A stretch of DNA of 64,000 bases from Candidatus Cloacimonadales bacterium (GCA_963662275.1 OY759316.1:2336001-2400000), one strand, 5' to 3'; counted from the stretch's first letter, positions 11,656-20,786 are shown. The notes: generated from the sequence alone by a model not told the origin. Numbers and translations are program-made.

Positions 11656-11754
11656 GTAGAGACGTGCAATATGCGCGTCTCTACTTCTTCGTGGCATAAG
11701 ATTCCGATCTTATGGTCTGTTCCGTGTAGAGCATGACGCCGATCATGCTGAATA
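11656..11754 (+). repeat. Cluster of three REP-like hairpins
   Basis: GTAGAGACG..CGTCTCTAC (11656-11684); GTGG-CATAAGA-TTCCGA-TCTTATG (11691-11714); GTAG-AGCATGA-CGCCGA-TCATGCT-GAAT (from 11726). Confidence 0.7.
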
Positions 11755-11984
11755 GTACGCAGCATATACTTCAGTATGTAACCCCTATTAATCCTACAAG
11801 AATGAAATTCCACAGCCTGTGGTGGATGCTCTGCAGAAAAGCAACGTAAACAATACTGCCACGATTCCTGAAGTAATCACCACCTGCACTTGTGGCAACT
11901 CCTTTAGGCTGTGTGGAAGCGACTTCAGGCGGTGAATGCTCTGCAGAAAAGCAGCGTAAACAATGCTGCCACGATTCCTGAAGT

Positions 11985-13845
11985 GAGACTGTTCATGAAG
12001 TTATTCATAATATTCAATAAGTTAGAAAGTAGCAAGTTGAAAAAAGTGGTCGAAACGGTCATAATTTAACATACCTTCCAGAATTGACAGATAAGCTCTG
12101 CTAAGGACACCAAATCACAAGTTAAGCTTTTTGACTAAAATTGAAAAACACGCGATTATAAGTAATGTTTCGAAGCCGTTTCTGACTAAATGTGTAGTTA
12201 AAATCATATAAAATAGTTCTTTACAAGTTTTTTGCTATAGCTTCAATGGCATTTGTTACCTGGTAACAAAAGGGAGGATATTATGACAAAAAAACACTCC
12301 AATTCAAGAAGCGGTAAGTGTTAGTCATGAAAGTAACCAATACCATGTAAGTATTAACGTACCATTTTCATTCACTTTGCCTGAGACAACATCAAACCAC
12401 AAGTTCTTAATAGCGTTTCTACGCTTATTAGTAGGAATAGGCGGAGACAACCTCCTTACACTTCAGCAAATAGCTGATCTGTTTAACTACGCAGACCGCA
12501 GGAATGTACATAATTTCTGGCAAGAGTTTGAGCAGCATGGTCATGATATCCTGGCATATTTAAGCCGGAAAGTTGACCTGCTGGAGTGTATTCCTCAGAT
12601 CGAGAATTTTGTTATCAATAACCTGCTTTTACCTTTAAATGTCATGTATCAGGAGTTCATCAGCCATCATGATTTTAAAATGTCCTATACCACTTTCTGC
12701 AAATATGCTTCTCAGGTCAATTCTCTGTCTGTAGTTAAGCAAGCTCAGAAGCTTCTTCTGAAAAAGACAGTAGGCGGTGATGCTGTACATCTGCTGAAAC
12801 TGCTTGCCGGTCAGCAGAATACACCTGTTATCTGTGACAGACTCCTGGAACAAATGAAGACTGCTAAAGGCAATACATCCCATAGAACCGCCGATGCAAA
12901 GCCGTTCCATAGTCTGGAACGCAAGAACCTGTGTCTGCTGGTACATTACCTGGTTGGAAGCGGTATGAACTTCGAGACGATAGCTTTGCTGCTCAACACC
13001 TGTAAAGCTACAGTCTCAAATCTCTGGCATGAAATCGCTGACCTGCAGAGCCTGATTCTGAACTCAATCGGTAAGTGGAGCGGAAAGATCAGCATTGATG
13101 AGAAATATGTGAAGATCAAAGGTATTCCGTACTATGTCATCAGTATTGTTGATTTTGTGACTCACATCCCTCTGTTTTGTGAGTTGTATCCTGACACAAA
13201 GAAAGAATCATTCGAAGCATGTTTCAGAACCTTCAGACAGCTCTACAGGAAAGATCCAACCCTGATTGTCAGTGATGGCAGTAAATCGTTAGCAGTTGCA
13301 AGAAAAACAGTGTTTCCAAAAGTCCATTACCAACTCTGTAAGTTCCATAAGATACGAAATCTCTTCAAAAGAATCAGTCAATGTCATCTCCCTGAAGACA
13401 GGGACAAGTTCTTTAAGAAGAGGATTATGAAAGCTTTCCGAAGAGAAACGGCGGGCGGAAGGAAAAAGGGTATCGCAAGCCTGACAGCTATTACTCCCCC
13501 AACCGCCGCCGAATACATCAAAAGCAATATCATTAGTGATTGGAGACACCTCAGCAAAGGTTTGACTTCCAATGTCTCTGAACGCTGGAACCGCAAAATC
13601 AAGAAGGTGACATCCGGTAGATTTGGACTAAAATCTGAAGAAACCACCCGCAACCTTGTGTTTTCGCTTTGGTTCAAAGAACTGGTCGATAAAGGTCAAC
13701 CAATCATGCGTCAGGAATCACTTTTAGCAAGTTTAAATATCTCCCGCATATGTCAAGAAAATGTGGATTGGTCGCACTTAGACCACTTTTTCTCTGTCAC
13801 TACCAATAAGGCTGCGTAAAATGGAGGTTAATTTTGAACAGTCTC
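11985..13845 (+). mobile_element. Insertion sequence, IS256/Mutator-like DDE type, copy 1 (1861 bp)
   Basis: 11-bp TIRs GAGACTGTTCA/TGAACAGTCTC and an 8-bp TSD CCTGAAGT (11977-11984 and 13846-13853). A second copy starts at 18926. Confidence 0.92.
12377..13819 (+). CDS. DDE transposase (IS256/ISH6-like, CxxH motif)
   Basis: SIDEKY (D), VSDGS (D), QLCKFHK (CxxH), TSNVSERWNR (E). The exact family assignment is tentative. Confidence 0.85.
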   Translation: MPETTSNHKFLIAFLRLLVGIGGDNLLTLQQIADLFNYADRRNVHNFWQEFEQHGHDILAYLSRKVDLLECIPQIENFVINNLLLPLNVMYQEFISHHDFKMSYTTFCKYASQVNSLSVVKQAQKLLLKKTVGGDAVHLLKLLAGQQNTPVICDRLLEQMKTAKGNTSHRTADAKPFHSLERKNLCLLVHYLVGSGMNFETIALLLNTCKATVSNLWHEIADLQSLILNSIGKWSGKISIDEKYVKIKGIPYYVISIVDFVTHIPLFCELYPDTKKESFEACFRTFRQLYRKDPTLIVSDGSKSLAVARKTVFPKVHYQLCKFHKIRNLFKRISQCHLPEDRDKFFKKRIMKAFRRETAGGRKKGIASLTAITPPTAAEYIKSNIISDWRHLSKGLTSNVSERWNRKIKKVTSGRFGLKSEETTRNLVFSLWFKELVDKGQPIMRQESLLASLNISRICQENVDWSHLDHFFSVTTNKAA

Positions 13846-13935: not shown

Positions 13936-14625
13936 ATGAATACCAAAAATAACTACAAACAATATCATCGTGGAGATTTGCCACATATTCAACCTAAAGA
14001 TGGTACTTTTTTTATTACTTTTCGACTAGATATTCCATTATCACAAGAATTCTACTCACTCCTCATGAAGAAAAAGGAAGAAATTAATTCCTCAACATAC
14101 AACATAAAGGATCTTAATGAACGGAACGTAATGTACAATAAAAAACTTTTTGCGTTTAAGGATAACTACTTTGATAAATATCAGCATCAAGATAATATGC
14201 TAAAATACCCTAATATCGCGAAGCTTATTATTGATGAACTACATTACCAGGACAAAAAGCTGTTTGATTTATTTGCTTATACAGTGATGCCGAATCATGT
14301 TCATTTCCTAATCAAACCGTTAACAGATGAAAATGGACAGTATTATTCTATCTCAAAGATCATGAATCTGATAAAAGGAAGAAGTTCAAGGTTTATCAAT
14401 CTGGAATTGAAAAGGTCTGGGACATTATGGCAAAGAGAATACTATGATCATTATGTAAGAAATGAAACTGAATTACATAATATAATCAGGTATATAGCAT
14501 TAAATCCTGTGAAAGCTGGTTTCGTTAATAAGCCTAACGAATGGGACTGGACATGGGTTGCGCAGGAGTTTATTAACCTTTTGGATGATGATTCAGTAAA
14601 AGAGGCGATTGCATTCTGGGGGTAG
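13936..14625 (+). CDS. REP-associated tyrosine transposase (RAYT/TnpA-REP, Y1 HUH superfamily)
   Basis: LPH..GTFFITFRL, VMPNHVH (HUH), IKG.S, LWQREYYDHYVRNE, IRYIALNPVKAG (catalytic Tyr). GGAGG RBS, TTGACA at 13881. Flanked on both sides by GTRG-hairpin repeats. Confidence 0.9.
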   Translation: MNTKNNYKQYHRGDLPHIQPKDGTFFITFRLDIPLSQEFYSLLMKKKEEINSSTYNIKDLNERNVMYNKKLFAFKDNYFDKYQHQDNMLKYPNIAKLIIDELHYQDKKLFDLFAYTVMPNHVHFLIKPLTDENGQYYSISKIMNLIKGRSSRFINLELKRSGTLWQREYYDHYVRNETELHNIIRYIALNPVKAGFVNKPNEWDWTWVAQEFINLLDDDSVKEAIAFWG

Positions 14626-16306
14626 GCAGAAAAGCAACGTAAACAATGCTGCCACGATTCCTGAAGTAATCACCACCTGCATTTGTGGCAACTCCTTTAG
14701 GCTGTGTGGAGGCGACTTCAGGCGATGAATGCTCTGCAGAAAAGCAGCGTAAACAATGCTGCCACGATTCCTGAAGTAATCACCACCTGCACTTGTGGCA
14801 ACTCCTTTAGGCTGTGTGGAAGCGACTTCAGGCGGTGGATGCTCTGCAGAAAAGCAACGTAAACAATGCTGCCACGATTCCTGAAGTAATCACCACTTTC
14901 TCTCGTGGCAACTCCTTTAGGCTGTGTGTAAATCAATTGTGGCAACTCCTTTAGGCTGTGTAGAGGCGACTTCAGGCGGTGGATGCTCTGCAGAAAAGCA
15001 ACGTAAACAATGCTGCCACGATTCCTGAAGTAATCACCACTTTCTCTCGTGGCGACTCCTTTAGGCTGTGTGGAGGCGACTTCAGGTGGTGAATGCTCTG
15101 CAGAAAAGCAGCGTAAACAATGCTGCCACGATTCCTGAAGTAATCACCACTTTCTCTCGTGGCGACTCCTTTAGGCTGTGTGGAGGCGACTTCAGGCGAT
15201 GAATGCTCTGCAGAAAAGCAACGTAAACAATGCTGCCACGATTCCTGAAGTAATCACCACTTTCTCTCGTGGCGACTCCTTTAGGCTGTGTGGAGGCGAC
15301 TTCAGGCGATGAATGCTCTGCAGAAAAGCAACGTAAACAATGCTGCCACGATTCCTGAAGTAATCACCACTTTCTCTCGTGGCAACTCCTTTAGGCTGTG
15401 TGGAAATCAATTGTGGCAACTCCTTTAGGCTGTATGGAGGCGACTTTAGGCGGTTGATACTCTGCAGAAAAGCAACGTAAACAATGCTGCCACGATTCCT
15501 GAAGTAATCACCACCTGCATTTGTGGCAACTCCTTTAGGCTGTGTGTAAATCAATTGTGGCAACTCCTTTAGGCTGTGTAGAGGCGACTTCAGGCGGTGG
15601 ATGCTCTGCAGAAAAGCAACGTAAACAATGCTGCCACGATTCCTGAAGTAATCACCACCTGCACTTGTGGCAACTCCTTTAGGCTGTGTGTAAATCAATT
15701 GTGGCAACTCCTTTAGGCTGTGTAGAGGCGACTTCAGGCGGTGGATGCTCTGCAGAAAAGCAACGTAAACAATGCTGCCACGATTCCTGAAGTAATCACC
15801 ACCTGCATTTGTGGCAACTCCTTTAGTAAGCTGTAGAGGCGACTTCAGGTGGTGAATGCTCTGCAGAAAAGCAGCGTAAACAATGCTGCCACGATTCCTG
15901 AAGTAATCACCACTTTCTCTCGTGGCGACTCCTTTAGGCTGTGTGAAGGCGACTTCAGGCGGTGAATGCTCTGCAGAAAAGCAGCGTTAACGATGCTGCC
16001 ACGATTCCTGAAGTAATCACCACTTTCTCTCGTGGCGACTCCTTTAGTAAGCTGTAGAGGCGACTTCAGGTGGTGAATGCTCTGCAGAAAAGCAGCGTAA
16101 ACAATGCTGCCACGATTCCTGAAGTAATCACCACTTTCTCTCGTGGCGACTCCTTTAGGCTGTGTGGAAGCGACTTCAGGCGGTGAATGCTCTGCAGAAA
16201 AGCAACGTAAACAATGCTGCCACGATTCCTGAAGTAATCACCACTTTCTCTCGTGGCGACTCCTTTAGGCTGTGTGGAAATCAATTGTGGCAACTCCTTT
16301 AGGCTG
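14626..16306. repeat. Main tandem array: 14 units of 110/111/144 bp
   Basis: Unit markers at about 14624, then 14734, 14844, 14988, 15098, 15208, 15318, 15462, 15606, 15750, 15861, 15971, 16082 and 16192. The array starts immediately after the RAYT stop codon. Confidence 0.95.
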
Positions 16307-16468
16307 ATATAGTTAGATAGTTATATATTATAATATATTCATAGTACTTGGCTTTCTGGAACCCTGCAATGACGCGTAGGGTACCGAAGCGTCATTGCAG
16401 GGTTCCAGAGACGCTGATTTTCGATCTGAATTCTATGATTAAATCGAATATTACTTATCAAAGCTCTC

Positions 16469-16641
16469 TTGGTTCTACATCCCGATCTTGCTGATATACT
16501 GGATTACCTTCTGATGGTATCCTATTCTTACTTTATCCTATCTGAGATAATACCCGCCGGTGTGCTATAATGAGCTATGGTAGAAGGTCTTGTAAACAAG
16601 CCTTAGTGCCTAATGACTACATCATCCGGCGAGTGAACCAA
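16469..16641 (-). ncRNA. Candidate bridge/seek RNA of the IS110 element
   Basis: A closing stem TTGGTTC/GAACCAA encloses two stem-closed loops, each with a central bulged hairpin flanked by 9-nt segments that match the donor junction or the target (see findings). Confidence 0.7.
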
Positions 16642-16684
16642 TCTAAACACCTCCATTATTTTTTGACTACTTTTTTTTCTTGGC

Positions 16685-17962
16685 TCACTGATTATTTTCA
16701 GTTAAATAACCTGCATATAGCTTTCGCTGTTCAGGATCAAACGACCTTTCATATTTAACCATTGAGTACATGATTCCCAGTAATTTACTGCTCAAAGAAA
16801 CGATAGTTTTGACCTTGTTATTACCTCGCTTTTTTACTTGATAATTATATATCTGATTGATTAATTGATTGTTTATAATCATTTCCAGAGTAAGCATATA
16901 CAAGATCCTTCGCAACCTTACTCTTCCTACCTTAGAGATATGATATTGCCCATGGTATTCTCCTGATTGATTGTGTTTTAAACTCAATCCGGCAAGTTTG
17001 ACTAAATCCTGATATCGACCATATTGATTGATATCTCCAGTCTCCGCCAGAATTAACCCCACTGATACTTTACTCAAACCAGGTATTGTCACCAATAACG
17101 ATCCATAACTGATTTTATCTACACATGTCATGATTGCTGTTTTGATTTGTTTGAGATGGTATTGTTTATAGCTGATATCCTCATAGATCGCATTTATGAC
17201 CACTCTCGCACTATCCGCTCCCTGACTCATGCCAATACTTGTTAGAGATACCTGATATAAACTGTGAAGCTTCTCTGTAGCTATGCACCCTTTGCTTTTT
17301 GTTTTCATAATCTTCAGAAAATTCTCATATCCTGCATTTACGATATCCTGAGGAAGAGGAAAACACTCCATGATATACATTACTCCCGTACTGTTAAATT
17401 TGAAAAAGTTACTCAATTCAGGAAAGTAACAGGCATAAGAGGCTTCCAGATAGTTCCTCTGCCTGCGAATATCTGTGATTAACTGGTGATAATAAGCTGC
17501 ATAGTTGTTCAACTCCGCGAAAACACCTTCAGGTCTCCGATGATGGATGCTCTTGCCCATTCTTAACAGAGAGGTAATGATAATACTGTCTTTCAAATCA
17601 TTCTTGGATGGATGATTATCTTCAATATCCTTCCATCTTTTAGTGTGTAATGGGTTGATGCTTTGGATTTGATAGCAGCGTTCTTCCAAGAAGTACTGGA
17701 GTGGCTTTACATATGAACCTGTTGGTTCCATTCCAAATACAATCTCGTTCAGATTCCACAAACGCTTTTGCTGTTCTGCTTCTTTTAGCAGATACTGAAA
17801 ACCATCATGATTGTTTGTAATAAAAAATGGCTTACGCTTCCGTTCACCTGTAAAATCACAAAAATACACACTGTGTTTGTGCTTGCTGATATCAATGCCA
17901 ACAAGCATCATTTCTGAGTTGACAAAAAACCTCTTTGGGTTAGATTTTGATGTGGTAATCAT
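16685..17962 (-). CDS. IS110 family recombinase/transposase
   Basis: RuvC-like DEDD motifs GIDISK, MEPTG and KNDLKDS. C-terminal TIPGLS, LAGL..NQSG (catalytic Ser) and ISKVG. GGAGG RBS. Confidence 0.95.
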   Translation of the reverse strand: MITTSKSNPKRFFVNSEMMLVGIDISKHKHSVYFCDFTGERKRKPFFITNNHDGFQYLLKEAEQQKRLWNLNEIVFGMEPTGSYVKPLQYFLEERCYQIQSINPLHTKRWKDIEDNHPSKNDLKDSIIITSLLRMGKSIHHRRPEGVFAELNNYAAYYHQLITDIRRQRNYLEASYACYFPELSNFFKFNSTGVMYIMECFPLPQDIVNAGYENFLKIMKTKSKGCIATEKLHSLYQVSLTSIGMSQGADSARVVINAIYEDISYKQYHLKQIKTAIMTCVDKISYGSLLVTIPGLSKVSVGLILAETGDINQYGRYQDLVKLAGLSLKHNQSGEYHGQYHISKVGRVRLRRILYMLTLEMIINNQLINQIYNYQVKKRGNNKVKTIVSLSSKLLGIMYSMVKYERSFDPEQRKLYAGYLTENNQ

Positions 17963-18044
17963 TGTTACCTCCTTTGTTGATTTGATCTATGTATATCAAC
18001 GAGGGAGGTTTTTCTACCTTAATTTTCTAACCTTCCTATAGTAA

Positions 18045-18363
18045 GCTGTGTGGAAGCGACTTCAGGCGGTGAATGCTCTGCAGAAAAGCAGCGTTAACGA
18101 TGCTGCCACGATTCCTGAAGTAATCACCACTTTCTCTCGTGGCAACTCCTTTAGGCTGTGTGGAGGCGACTTCAGGCGATGAATGCTCTGCAGAAAAGCA
18201 ACGTAAACAATGCTGCCACGATTCCTGAAGTAATCACCACTTTCTCTCGTGGCAACTCCTTTAGGCTGTGTGGAAATCAATTGTGGCAACTCCTTTAGGC
18301 TGTGTGGAGGCGACTTCAGGGGGTGAATGCTCTGCAGAAAAGCAGCGTAAACAATGCTGCCAC
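18045..18363. repeat. Distal part of the tandem array (3 units, last one partial)
   Basis: Unit markers at 18078, 18188 and 18332. Confidence 0.92.
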
Positions 18364-18518
18364 CGCATACAGTTGGACTTCGAATCACTTTCGATATTGA
18401 ATGTACCATTTCCTAAGTTTTTCAGAATTTTGATGTTACCTGAGGTTGTGCTTCCTGATACAATGAGATCCTGATCACTATCTAAATCAAGATCTGAAGT
18501 TGTAAATTGTCTCGGCAT
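18364..18518 (-). pseudogene. Fragment of an FG-GAP/VCBS-repeat protein abutting the array
   Basis: TSDLDLDSDQDLIVS...ILKNLGNGTF is a single FG-GAP-like repeat, after which the frame runs into array sequence. Confidence 0.55.
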
Positions 18519-18925: not shown

Positions 18926-20786
18926 GAGACTGTTCATGAAGTTATTCATAATATTCAATAAGTTAGAAAGTAGCAAGTTGAAAAAAGTGGTCGAAACGGT
19001 CATAATTTAACATACCTTCCAGAATTGACAGATAAGCTCTGCTAAGGACACCAAATCACAAGTTAAGCTTTTTGACTAAAATTGAAAAACACGCGATTAT
19101 AAGTAATGTTTCGAAGCCGTTTCTGACTAAATGTGTAGTTAAAATCATATAAAATAGTTCTTTACAAGTTTTTTGCTATAGCTTCAATGGCATTTGTTAC
19201 CTGGTAACAAAAGGGAGGATATTATGACAAAAAAACACTCCAATTCAAGAAGCGGTAAGTGTTAGTCATGAAAGTAACCAATACCATGTAAGTATTAACG
19301 TACCATTTTCATTCACTTTGCCTGAGACAACATCAAACCACAAGTTCTTAATAGCGTTTCTACGCTTATTAGTAGGAATAGGCGGAGACAACCTCCTTAC
19401 ACTTCAGCAAATAGCTGATCTGTTTAACTACGCAGACCGCAGGAATGTACATAATTTCTGGCAAGAGTTTGAGCAGCATGGTCATGATATCCTGGCATAT
19501 TTAAGCCGGAAAGTTGACCTGCTGGAGTGTATTCCTCAGATCGAGAATTTTGTTATCAATAACCTGCTTTTACCTTTAAATGTCATGTATCAGGAGTTCA
19601 TCAGCCATCATGATTTTAAAATGTCCTATACCACTTTCTGCAAATATGCTTCTCAGGTCAATTCTCTGTCTGTAGTTAAGCAAGCTCAGAAGCTTCTTCT
19701 GAAAAAGACAGTAGGCGGTGATGCTGTACATCTGCTGAAACTGCTTGCCGGTCAGCAGAATACACCTGTTATCTGTGACAGACTCCTGGAACAAATGAAG
19801 ACTGCTAAAGGCAATACATCCCATAGAACCGCCGATGCAAAGCCGTTCCATAGTCTGGAACGCAAGAACCTGTGTCTGCTGGTACATTACCTGGTTGGAA
19901 GCGGTATGAACTTCGAGACGATAGCTTTGCTGCTCAACACCTGTAAAGCTACAGTCTCAAATCTCTGGCATGAAATCGCTGACCTGCAGAGCCTGATTCT
20001 GAACTCAATCGGTAAGTGGAGCGGAAAGATCAGCATTGATGAGAAATATGTGAAGATCAAAGGTATTCCGTACTATGTCATCAGTATTGTTGATTTTGTG
20101 ACTCACATCCCTCTGTTTTGTGAGTTGTATCCTGACACAAAGAAAGAATCATTCGAAGCATGTTTCAGAACCTTCAGACAGCTCTACAGGAAAGATCCAA
20201 CCCTGATTGTCAGTGATGGCAGTAAATCGTTAGCAGTTGCAAGAAAAACAGTGTTTCCAAAAGTCCATTACCAACTCTGTAAGTTCCATAAGATACGAAA
20301 TCTCTTCAAAAGAATCAGTCAATGTCATCTCCCTGAAGACAGGGACAAGTTCTTTAAGAAGAGGATTATGAAAGCTTTCCGAAGAGAAACGGCGGGCGGA
20401 AGGAAAAAGGGTATCGCAAGCCTGACAGCTATTACTCCCCCAACCGCCGCCGAATACATCAAAAGCAATATCATTAGTGATTGGAGACACCTCAGCAAAG
20501 GTTTGACTTCCAATGTCTCTGAACGCTGGAACCGCAAAATCAAGAAGGTGACATCCGGTAGATTTGGACTAAAATCTGAAGAAACCACCCGCAACCTTGT
20601 GTTTTCGCTTTGGTTCAAAGAACTGGTCGATAAAGGTCAACCAATCATGCGTCAGGAATCACTTTTAGCAAGTTTAAATATCTCCCGCATATGTCAAGAA
20701 AATGTGGATTGGTCGCACTTAGACCACTTTTTCTCTGTCACTACCAATAAGGCTGCGTAAAATGGAGGTTAATTTTGAACAGTCTC
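18926..20786 (+). mobile_element. Insertion sequence, IS256/Mutator-like, copy 2
   Basis: Same TIRs and same translated protein as copy 1 (offset 6941). It has its own 8-bp TSD AAATGAAA (18918-25 and 20787-94). Confidence 0.92.
19318..20760 (+). CDS. DDE transposase, same protein as 12377-13819
   Basis: Identical 480-aa translation in the ORF track. Confidence 0.85.
   Translation: MPETTSNHKFLIAFLRLLVGIGGDNLLTLQQIADLFNYADRRNVHNFWQEFEQHGHDILAYLSRKVDLLECIPQIENFVINNLLLPLNVMYQEFISHHDFKMSYTTFCKYASQVNSLSVVKQAQKLLLKKTVGGDAVHLLKLLAGQQNTPVICDRLLEQMKTAKGNTSHRTADAKPFHSLERKNLCLLVHYLVGSGMNFETIALLLNTCKATVSNLWHEIADLQSLILNSIGKWSGKISIDEKYVKIKGIPYYVISIVDFVTHIPLFCELYPDTKKESFEACFRTFRQLYRKDPTLIVSDGSKSLAVARKTVFPKVHYQLCKFHKIRNLFKRISQCHLPEDRDKFFKKRIMKAFRRETAGGRKKGIASLTAITPPTAAEYIKSNIISDWRHLSKGLTSNVSERWNRKIKKVTSGRFGLKSEETTRNLVFSLWFKELVDKGQPIMRQESLLASLNISRICQENVDWSHLDHFFSVTTNKAA

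Follow-up and report, generated by a model that had tools for sequence, protein, structure and literature searches.

A putative bridge RNA in the right end of an IS110-family insertion sequence from a Candidatus Cloacimonadales bacterium

The window analyzed here, a 64,000-nucleotide stretch of the genome of a Candidatus Cloacimonadales bacterium (GCA_963662275.1 OY759316.1:2336001-2400000), carries an IS110-family insertion sequence on its minus strand, with the right end at the low and the left end at the high coordinate. Within the right end, 16469-16641 (minus) encodes a putative bridge RNA, or long seekRNA, of what we take to be an active element, a reading that we rate at a probability of about 0.9. 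An initial annotation of the same DNA had proposed an RNA-guided IS110-family recombinase working with a target loop and a donor loop, and the recombinase domains, a fold match, the fit between guides and sites, and covariation all lend support to that proposal. The genome, a single 4.38-Mb contig, holds six copies of the element, and sequence identity among them breaks off exactly at the 16303..18046 junctions; as the six are 100% identical across 1745 nt, the element appears to be active. A separate 1747-nt unitig in public sequencing runs corresponds to the element, spanning 16303-18047. The mechanism itself was already published in 2024, and the element is a further, well-supported example that brings no new mechanism.

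The putative RNA and its recombinase

The RNA region begins 44 nt past the recombinase stop codon, in a right end of 382 nt, and as a whole is closed by TTGGTTC (16469-16475) with GAACCAA (16635-16641). It contains two stem-loops, whose parts are collected in Table 1; on rereading of the window, all motif sequences and coordinates that the initial annotation had given for them proved correct, as did its counts of matching positions for the donor (9/9 and 8/9) and target (7/9 and 5/9) segments. Folding of the 173 nt gives -48.4 kcal/mol for the sense strand (z = -3.5, equaled by 1 of 200 shuffles), compared with -43.9 kcal/mol (z = -1.9, equaled by 11 of 200) for the opposite strand, and this better folding of the sense strand supports an RNA on the minus strand. 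The fold is also structurally conserved in a 53%-identical relative of the element, described below. In an alignment of three rows representing two lineages, the specified helices comprise 39 pairs with 117 of 117 cells paired, including 3 compensatory and 3 one-sided changes, whereas sliding the helix partners by 1 to 3 columns leaves 36 to 50% paired.

One detail of the earlier model had to be replaced. The donor loop had been drawn as closed by ATCT/AGAT, of which, on inspection of the alignment, only 2 of 4 pairs are kept in the relative; another helix, in RNA sense UCUC-A-GAU with AUC-GGGA, closes the loop and is supported by both elements, its 9 pairs being 7 invariant, 1 changed on one side, and 1 compensatory. 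A 62-aa open reading frame lies antisense to the putative RNA (16570-16758, +) and is unlikely to be coding, because the stems are kept while the arms change.

Table 1. Coordinates of the features discussed; for the left-end-matching 5-mers the position number is given.
Feature	Position	Strand	Description
Putative bridge RNA (seekRNA)	16469..16641	minus	173 nt; target-binding loop 5' of donor-binding loop; folds, consensus fold with relative
Target-loop basal stem, 5' strand	16626..16633	minus	on +, CCGGCGAG; 17 nt CTCGCCGGATGATGTAG 17/17 identical in relative
Target loop, 5' arm	16608..16616	minus	on +, GCCTAATGA; RNA TCATTAGGC, complementary to top strand of core and right target (GC-CTAATGA)
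Target loop, apical hairpin	16584..16604	minus	7 pairs in both elements; closing pair A-U to G-C
Target loop, 3' arm	16574..16582	minus	on +, GCTATGGTA; RNA TACCATAGC, same sense as left target and core, so pairs with bottom strand
Target-loop basal stem, 3' strand	16553..16560	minus	on +, CCCGCCGG; pairs with 16626-16633, closing the loop; 8 pairs, 7 invariant, 1 U-G to U-A
Donor-loop basal stem (corrected), 5' strand	16540..16547	minus
Donor loop, 5' arm	16527..16535	minus	on +, CTTACTTTA; RNA TAAAGTAAG, complementary to left-end top strand (C-TTACTATA)
Donor loop, apical bulged hairpin	16501..16522	minus	on +, GGATTACC 16501-16508 with GGTATCC 16516-16522; 7 pairs, invariant in relative
Donor loop, 3' arm	16490..16498	minus	on +, GCTGATATA; RNA TATATCAGC, equal to last 9 nt of right end, so pairs with bottom strand
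Donor-loop basal stem (corrected), 3' strand	16480..16486	minus	pairs with 16540-16547
Perfect hairpin, 21 bp	16355..16409	minus	between bridge RNA and right-end terminus, ~60 nt downstream of donor loop; -44.3 kcal/mol
Whole IS110-family element	16303..18046	minus	1742 bp plus one extra GC core copy; six identical copies, junctions, unitig
Recombinase gene	16685..17962	minus	425 aa; DEDD RuvC-like domain and Tnp domain with Ser-Gly (S333-G334)
Left non-coding end	17963..18044	minus	short, 82 nt (vs 382 nt right)
Right-end terminus	16303..16311	minus	left donor half, read by donor-loop 3' arm; includes core GC 16303-16304
Left-end terminus	18037..18046	minus	right donor half, read by donor-loop 5' arm; plus core GC 18045-18046
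Right target half of window insertion (element orientation)	16296..16302	.	CCTTTAG on +; within REP-like repeat unit
Left target half of window insertion (element orientation)	18047..18053	.	TGTGTGG on +
Left-end-matching 5-mer, window element	position 1519		GTAAG
Left-end-matching 5-mer, close relative	position 1534		GCAAG
Left-end-matching 5-mer, L023	position 1572		GGAAG
Left-end-matching 5-mer, L024	position 1562		AGAAG
Left-end-matching 5-mer, L022	position 1521		GAATG, shifted 1 nt
RAYT gene	13936-14625		229 aa; NF047646 98.2 bits, cut-off 80; directly upstream of array
Repeat array	11723-12132, 14516-16302, 18045-18416		~110-nt units with interspersed 34-nt units

The protein encoded upstream of the RNA matches PF01548 (92.1 bits, cut-off 29) and PF02371 (58.4 bits, cut-off 21.3) in Pfam, and scores 177.2 bits against the NCBIfam family NF033542, 'IS110 family RNA-guided transposase' (cut-off 140). 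Among 18 aligned homologues, D24, E79, D125, S333, and G334 are invariant and D122 nearly so. When an AlphaFold model of the protein (pLDDT 82.4, pTM 0.70) is compared with the PDB, IS621 and ISCro4 chains fill the first ten places (E from 2e-15 to 7e-14; TM 0.83-0.86, normalised to the target), the best being IS621 8wt9 and ISCro4 9t56 (E ~1e-15) at a sequence identity of ~18%. Domains, conserved residues, and predicted fold thus support its assignment as an IS110-family RNA-guided transposase. By sequence, residues 15-180 and 271-412 align to ISCro4, and therefore the extra ~90 residues lie between the two domains; the motif preceding Ser-Gly is G-L-S-L, not G-L-x-P.

Homologues of this recombinase are scarce. 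Only two proteins among 5.8 billion are more than 33% identical to it, at 56% (P0001) and 49%, with the next at no more than 33%, and a metagenome scan yielded one locus (L019), 24% identical. Against plasmids, the best tblastn match is 32% identical (Anoxybacillus, with a downstream gap of ~460 nt), and blastn of the right non-coding region gave no match. Viral contigs containing a 15-nt scaffold motif were also considered; the at least 119 matches were judged chance matches of a short motif, although relatives may be among them.

Target guides and insertion sites

Insertion sites of all six copies were reconstructed and are given, like those that follow, in element orientation: CCACACA-GC-CTAAAGG for the window, and AAATATA-GC-CTAATAA, ATAGATA-GC-TTAATGT, TCCCATA-GC-CTAACGT, GATCATA-GC-CTGTAGT, and CGAAATA-GC-CTAATAA for the others. 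The ideal target derived from the two target-loop arms is TACCATA-GC-CTAATGA, and the consensus of the five non-window sites is nnnCATA-GC-CTAATnn. The initial annotation had anticipated an ideal target nearer to TCATTAG-GC-TATGGTA than to the site in the window, and the consensus of the five other sites is the reverse complement of that sequence. As the arms were derived from the window copy alone, these five sites constitute an independent test. They match the arms at 10, 8, 11, 8, and 9 of the 14 non-core positions (genomic background P(>=8) ~0.016), with a product of tail probabilities of 10^-13.4; among 337,866 GC-centred 16-mers of the genome, 5,004 (1.5%) reach 8 matches, 1,012 reach 9, 127 reach 10, and 22 reach 11. 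Unoccupied sites with at least 11 of 14 matches number 22 in the genome, and guide positions far from the core tolerate mismatches. When all 3468 9-mers of the element (both strands) are compared with the sites, the target 5' arm ranks first against the six right halves (mean 7.0/9, next best 5.5), and the 3' arm ranks second against the left halves and joint first on the five non-window sites.

The relative, found in a Candidatus Cloacimonadaceae metagenome-assembled genome, is represented by six loci in a scan of species genomes and by seven matches in a search of the phylum, where it is the only close relative among the proteins of the 232 genomes covered. The right ends of the two elements can be aligned. 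The stems of the target loop are identical at 17/17 and 11/13 positions, those of the donor loop at 8/10 and 8/9, and the donor hairpin at 18/22, whereas the target arms, TTCCTATGT (5') and TTATGTAGC (3') in the relative, agree at only 4/9 and 5/9; for the donor arms the figures are 6/9 and 8/9. The relative's sites read ..TGTA-GC-ATAGG.., with right halves of (G/A)C-ATAGG.. and left halves ending in ..TGTAGC. Its arms, taken at positions fixed by homology, rank third and second of 3464 9-mers against its own sites, and its six sites match them at 9, 8, 9, 12, 8, and 8 of 14 positions, for a product of 10^-14.9 computed on the background of the window's genome. A further copy (L013), 94% identical and with an aberrant left junction, was left out of this count. 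With the guides swapped between the elements, matches fall to 3-8 of 14 and the products to 10^-4.4 and 10^-2.9. Across the gathered insertion sites of the two elements, guides and targets thus covary, each site preferring its own guides over those of the other element in 12 of 12 cases. With the scaffold and donor loop kept, the target arms rewritten, and the insertion sites following them, the pair reads as natural reprogramming.

These comparisons bear on whether the region might be an ordinary structured 3' untranslated region or terminator whose matches to target and ends arise by chance. Taken singly the 9-mer matches are indeed weak, with another 9-mer of the element tying with or beating the left-target arm and 8/9 matches to the left end expected ~0.4 times per element by our estimate, but the joint ranks of the arms recur at homologous positions in two elements, and the tail products of 10^-13.4 and 10^-14.9 contrast with those of the swapped guides. 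Rfam holds no family that matches the RNA, its weak miRNA-like matches falling on the long hairpin only and below gathering scores; against this, the scaffold is conserved while the guide arms change, and there is no terminator-like site. We find a chance origin scarcely credible.

A different question is whether the RNA is genuine but the insertion in the window's repeat array was unguided, having been brought there by homologous recombination or by duplication of an array unit. The array, with units of 110 and 34 nt, is highly recombinogenic, and by strict matching its site is joint weakest of the six, at 8 of 14 non-core positions. However, the junctions are exact at the GC core used by the other five copies, and when the core is included in both arms and rU-dG and rG-dT wobble is allowed, the site has 12 Watson-Crick and 3 wobble pairs of 18. 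This score of 15/18 equals that of the best site (background P(>=15) 0.001), and seven contiguous bases, AGCCTAA, are matched. Unguided insertion in the array is accordingly, to us, quite improbable.

Two side observations concern the relative's sites. Its targets are located at the 5' base of hairpins whose stems vary, ATAG-stem-loop-stem-CTGTTG (L013-L018, L034). The left junction of L013 reads ..TTAGGTT-GTGCTATATT, and another copy begins 3.8 kb downstream; L013 is probably an old or rearranged copy.

Donor guides, core and proposed mechanism

The second loop is predicted to read the ends of the element itself. Its 3' arm equals the right-end terminus at 9/9 positions, a 9-mer found nowhere else in the element, and its 5' arm matches the left end at 8/9, with 6 contiguous from the core C. 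In the relative, the donor 3' arm is CATATCAGC and its own terminus CTATATCAGC. Three more distant lineages (L022-L024), with recombinases 28-31% identical, come from three other families of the phylum as short element-only contigs; they have long downstream non-coding regions with a partial common scaffold (AGATAGGA..) and left ends starting AGC. The five bases that open the left end recur in each of the five lineages as their reverse complement, at a homologous position of the non-coding region (Table 1), each such 5-mer occurring only 2-4 times per element, and in all five the target-loop 3' arm ends in AGC. From the layout of L022-L024, the arrangement with an RNA in the right end therefore spans a wide branch.

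Conservation of the donor stem-loop is one point to be set against a shorter seekRNA, in which only the first stem-loop would guide and the donor-loop matches would be DNA-level features, such as internal end copies bound by the recombinase. Excerpts of Siddiquee et al. (PMC11187229) describe short forms of 82-96 nt, with target matches only, as predominant and sufficient. The donor 5' arm is moreover imperfect, at 8/9 here and 6/9 in the relative, and the ends are near-identical in the two close relatives, so that the 3' arm cannot show covariation. The donor stem-loop nonetheless has the same internal-loop geometry as the target loop and keeps 16 pairs, one of them compensatory, and its 5' arm tracks the differing left ends across five lineages; in IS621, according to excerpts of PMC11208160, the second loop binds the donor. 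We consider a purely target-reading RNA improbable and favor the two-loop bridge RNA.

The window junctions read CCTTTAG-GCTG-ATATAG on the low side (16296-16312) and TATAGTAA-GCTG-TGTGG on the high side (18037-18053), and across the six copies the junctions are, in element orientation, ..(T/C)AGC-TTACTATAGG.. and ..CTATATCAGC-(C/T)T... Insertion occurred without target duplication, a short core common to target and donor being present at both junctions. Only AGC is shared by both junctions of the six copies. The base preceding it comes from the target at the left junction and from the donor at the right, where the base following GC is in turn supplied by the target, and therefore the exchange falls within AGC. 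The earlier placement of the core within GCTG thus holds on the plus strand, and the other copies narrow it to a shared GCT there, most likely with GC as the dinucleotide. The subterminal inverted repeat, CTATA/TATAG, measures 5 bp, with 4-5 bp in the relative by inspection of its ends. Both elements have an outward TATAAT ~24 nt inside their right end.

The relative adds a further indication about the core. Its right junction is ..TCAAC in two of seven copies (L014, L018) and ..TCAGC in the other five, while the left junction is ..TAGC in all six copies in which it is regular; the donor arm reads ..CAGC, and the target 5' arm is complementary to AC-ATAGGAA. By analogy with IS621, exchange between an AC target core and a GC donor core across a 2-nt stagger would yield this pattern. 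The junctions indicate that the first core position is tolerant of mismatch.

Together, these elements suggest how the element may move. The RNA would fold into two stem-loops, each with an internal loop, the first reading the target, ideally TACCATA-GC-CTAATGA, and the second the joined ends of the element itself, ..CTATATCA-GC-TTACTATA... The 425-aa DEDD/Ser recombinase, which by analogy with IS621 would act as a tetramer on the two loops, would exchange strands at the GC core, and a circular element would insert without target duplication, leaving GC(TG) on both sides as the shared core. We infer transcription of the RNA (probably with or after tnp), binding by the enzyme, the chemistry, the tetramer, and the circular intermediate.

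Several observations weigh against a bridge RNA in this region. The structural covariation comes from two close lineages and 3 compensatory pairs and is suggestive only, and 22 of 500 shuffles reach the observed fold-covariation values. A promoter and terminator scan found no sigma-70-like promoter beyond chance before the RNA and no intrinsic terminator, and a junction scan found no hybrid promoter across the joined ends. No circle-junction contig was seen in the contigs of four public runs, where rare forms are dropped, and none of the public runs holding the element is recorded as RNA. Two pairs of sites share a repeat family, so that the insertions are independent but the sequences not fully. 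The strict score of the window site and the imperfect donor 5' arms fall on the same side, as does the register of the L022 5-mer, which was picked after looking.

In the run contigs, a joint of 16302 to 18045 was considered as a sign of excision and rejected, since it equals an uninterrupted repeat unit present elsewhere in the array; loose ends in these contigs are flanks of other genomic copies.

Genomic setting and relation to known systems

All six copies sit in dispersed or tandem repeats, one of them beside a gene for a REP-associated tyrosine transposase (RAYT), REP being repetitive extragenic sequences. IS621 targets REP sequences. The reconstructed empty sites of the five other copies have 18-68 BLAST matches each in the genome. 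At four of these sites, matches extend across the insertion point; for the remaining site (c615k) the listed matches stop just short of it. The array beside the RAYT gene starts at 14694; of its motif CCTTTAGGCTG there are 21 copies in the window, compared with only 3 in the rest of the genome. Minus-strand open reading frames across the array are probably repeat artefacts. Another copy, at 1.703 Mb (G000:C1 ~1702459-1703251), likewise lies in a tandem array, in which four more units, 100% identical over 105 nt, carry the same target unoccupied.

Some repeat units depart from the normal CCTTTAGGCTG and read CCTTTAG-TAA-GCTG, as two in the window array do (15820-15833 and 16041-16054), or CCTATAGTAAGCTG. 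One isolated unit, at G000:C1 ~3178659-3178681, contains no element, yet its sequence, TCCTATAGTAAGCTGTGTGGAA, agrees over 22 nt with the left-end junction of the window copy. Between bases 4-11 of the left end (CTATAGGA) and the right target half in the array (CTAAAGGA), 7/8 positions match, and our guess is that these variants are footprints of earlier insertions deleted across this 7-of-8 microhomology. A different insertion sequence, encoding a 480-aa Mutator/MULE-like DDE transposase, is present in the window as two identical copies (12377-13819 and 19318-20760; repeat starts 11985 and 18926). They lie 6941 nt apart in direct orientation, flanking the RAYT gene, the IS110-family element, and the array, which is also interrupted by the first copy.

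Between the putative RNA and the right-end terminus, the element carries a long hairpin (Table 1) without a U-tract. The relative has it at the same place, where the apical GACGC-13 nt-GCGTC differs at two loop positions only; the 16 lower pairs are standard in both elements, with 10 of the 16 changed on both sides. Such changes argue that the hairpin is selected as a structure. It could serve in RNA 3'-end formation (for example, as a double-strand RNase site), as an insulator, or as a recombinase binding site.

In layout, the element resembles the IS1111 group. Excerpts of Siddiquee et al. 2024 (PMC11187229) place IS1111-type seekRNAs downstream, with the match complementary to the top strand lying 5' of the match to the bottom strand, and long seekRNA forms are given as 148-172 nt in excerpts of PMC13604230. 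As in ISEc11, ISPa11, ISKpn4, and ISPst6 (excerpts of PMC11187229 and PMC11208160), the long non-coding region here lies downstream of tnp (382 nt, compared with 82 nt upstream); the top-strand arm is 5' of the bottom-strand arm, the two matches overlap where insertion occurs, the target is not duplicated, and the 173-nt RNA is comparable to the long forms. Other features differ. The same excerpts give transposase lengths of 330-350 aa for the IS1111 group and 395-455 aa for the IS110 subgroup (PMC11187229), and subterminal inverted repeats of 7-17 bp for the former (PMC11208160), whereas the recombinase here has 425 aa, with the extra ~90 aa between residues 180 and 271, and the repeat is 5 bp. 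G-L-S-L replaces G-L-x-P before Ser-Gly, and the covarying 21-bp hairpin is an addition after the RNA. Judged by features, the layout is IS1111-like, and the recombinase length and 5-bp repeat are not. IS110-type elements with a downstream non-coding region are also described in the excerpts of PMC11187229, and bridge RNAs are predicted in 93% of IS1111-group and 86% of IS110-group elements in those of PMC11208160.

The predicted protein fold (TM 0.83-0.86) resembles IS621 and ISCro4 (PDB 8wt6-8wt9, 9t56), as does the pairing of a target and a donor internal loop, with the target loop 5' and the two arms of each loop reading opposite strands and including the dinucleotide core. In IS621 and ISCro4, however, the RNA precedes the gene, in the left end, whereas the 82-nt left end here holds no such RNA; and in the IS621/ISEc21 type the 5' side of the loop pairs with the bottom strand, an arm order that is reversed here, where the core is GC. 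The element also resembles ISPpu9 and ISPpu10 of Pseudomonas putida, which excerpts of PMC12288879 describe as IS110-family elements with several genomic copies in REP sequences; unlike them, it has no orphan RNA copy in this genome, and its RNA carries clear guides.

A bolder view is that the element and its Cloacimonadota relatives form a distinct bridge-recombinase branch, in which an IS110-like recombinase of ~420-430 aa without the conserved Pro before Ser-Gly is combined with an IS1111-like right-end RNA, perhaps with the 21-bp hairpin as a third functional module and with the TAA variants as footprints of imprecise insertion loss. We think this possible but doubtful.

The element offers a cleanly readable natural case of RNA-guided recombination from the little-sampled, uncultured Cloacimonadota, and its pairing with the relative shows which positions can vary. 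Tolerance at the first core base, together with distal guide mismatches, bears on the prediction of off-target insertion. For genome engineering, this is one more divergent orthologue to screen, and for biology, it confirms what was expected of the IS110 family.

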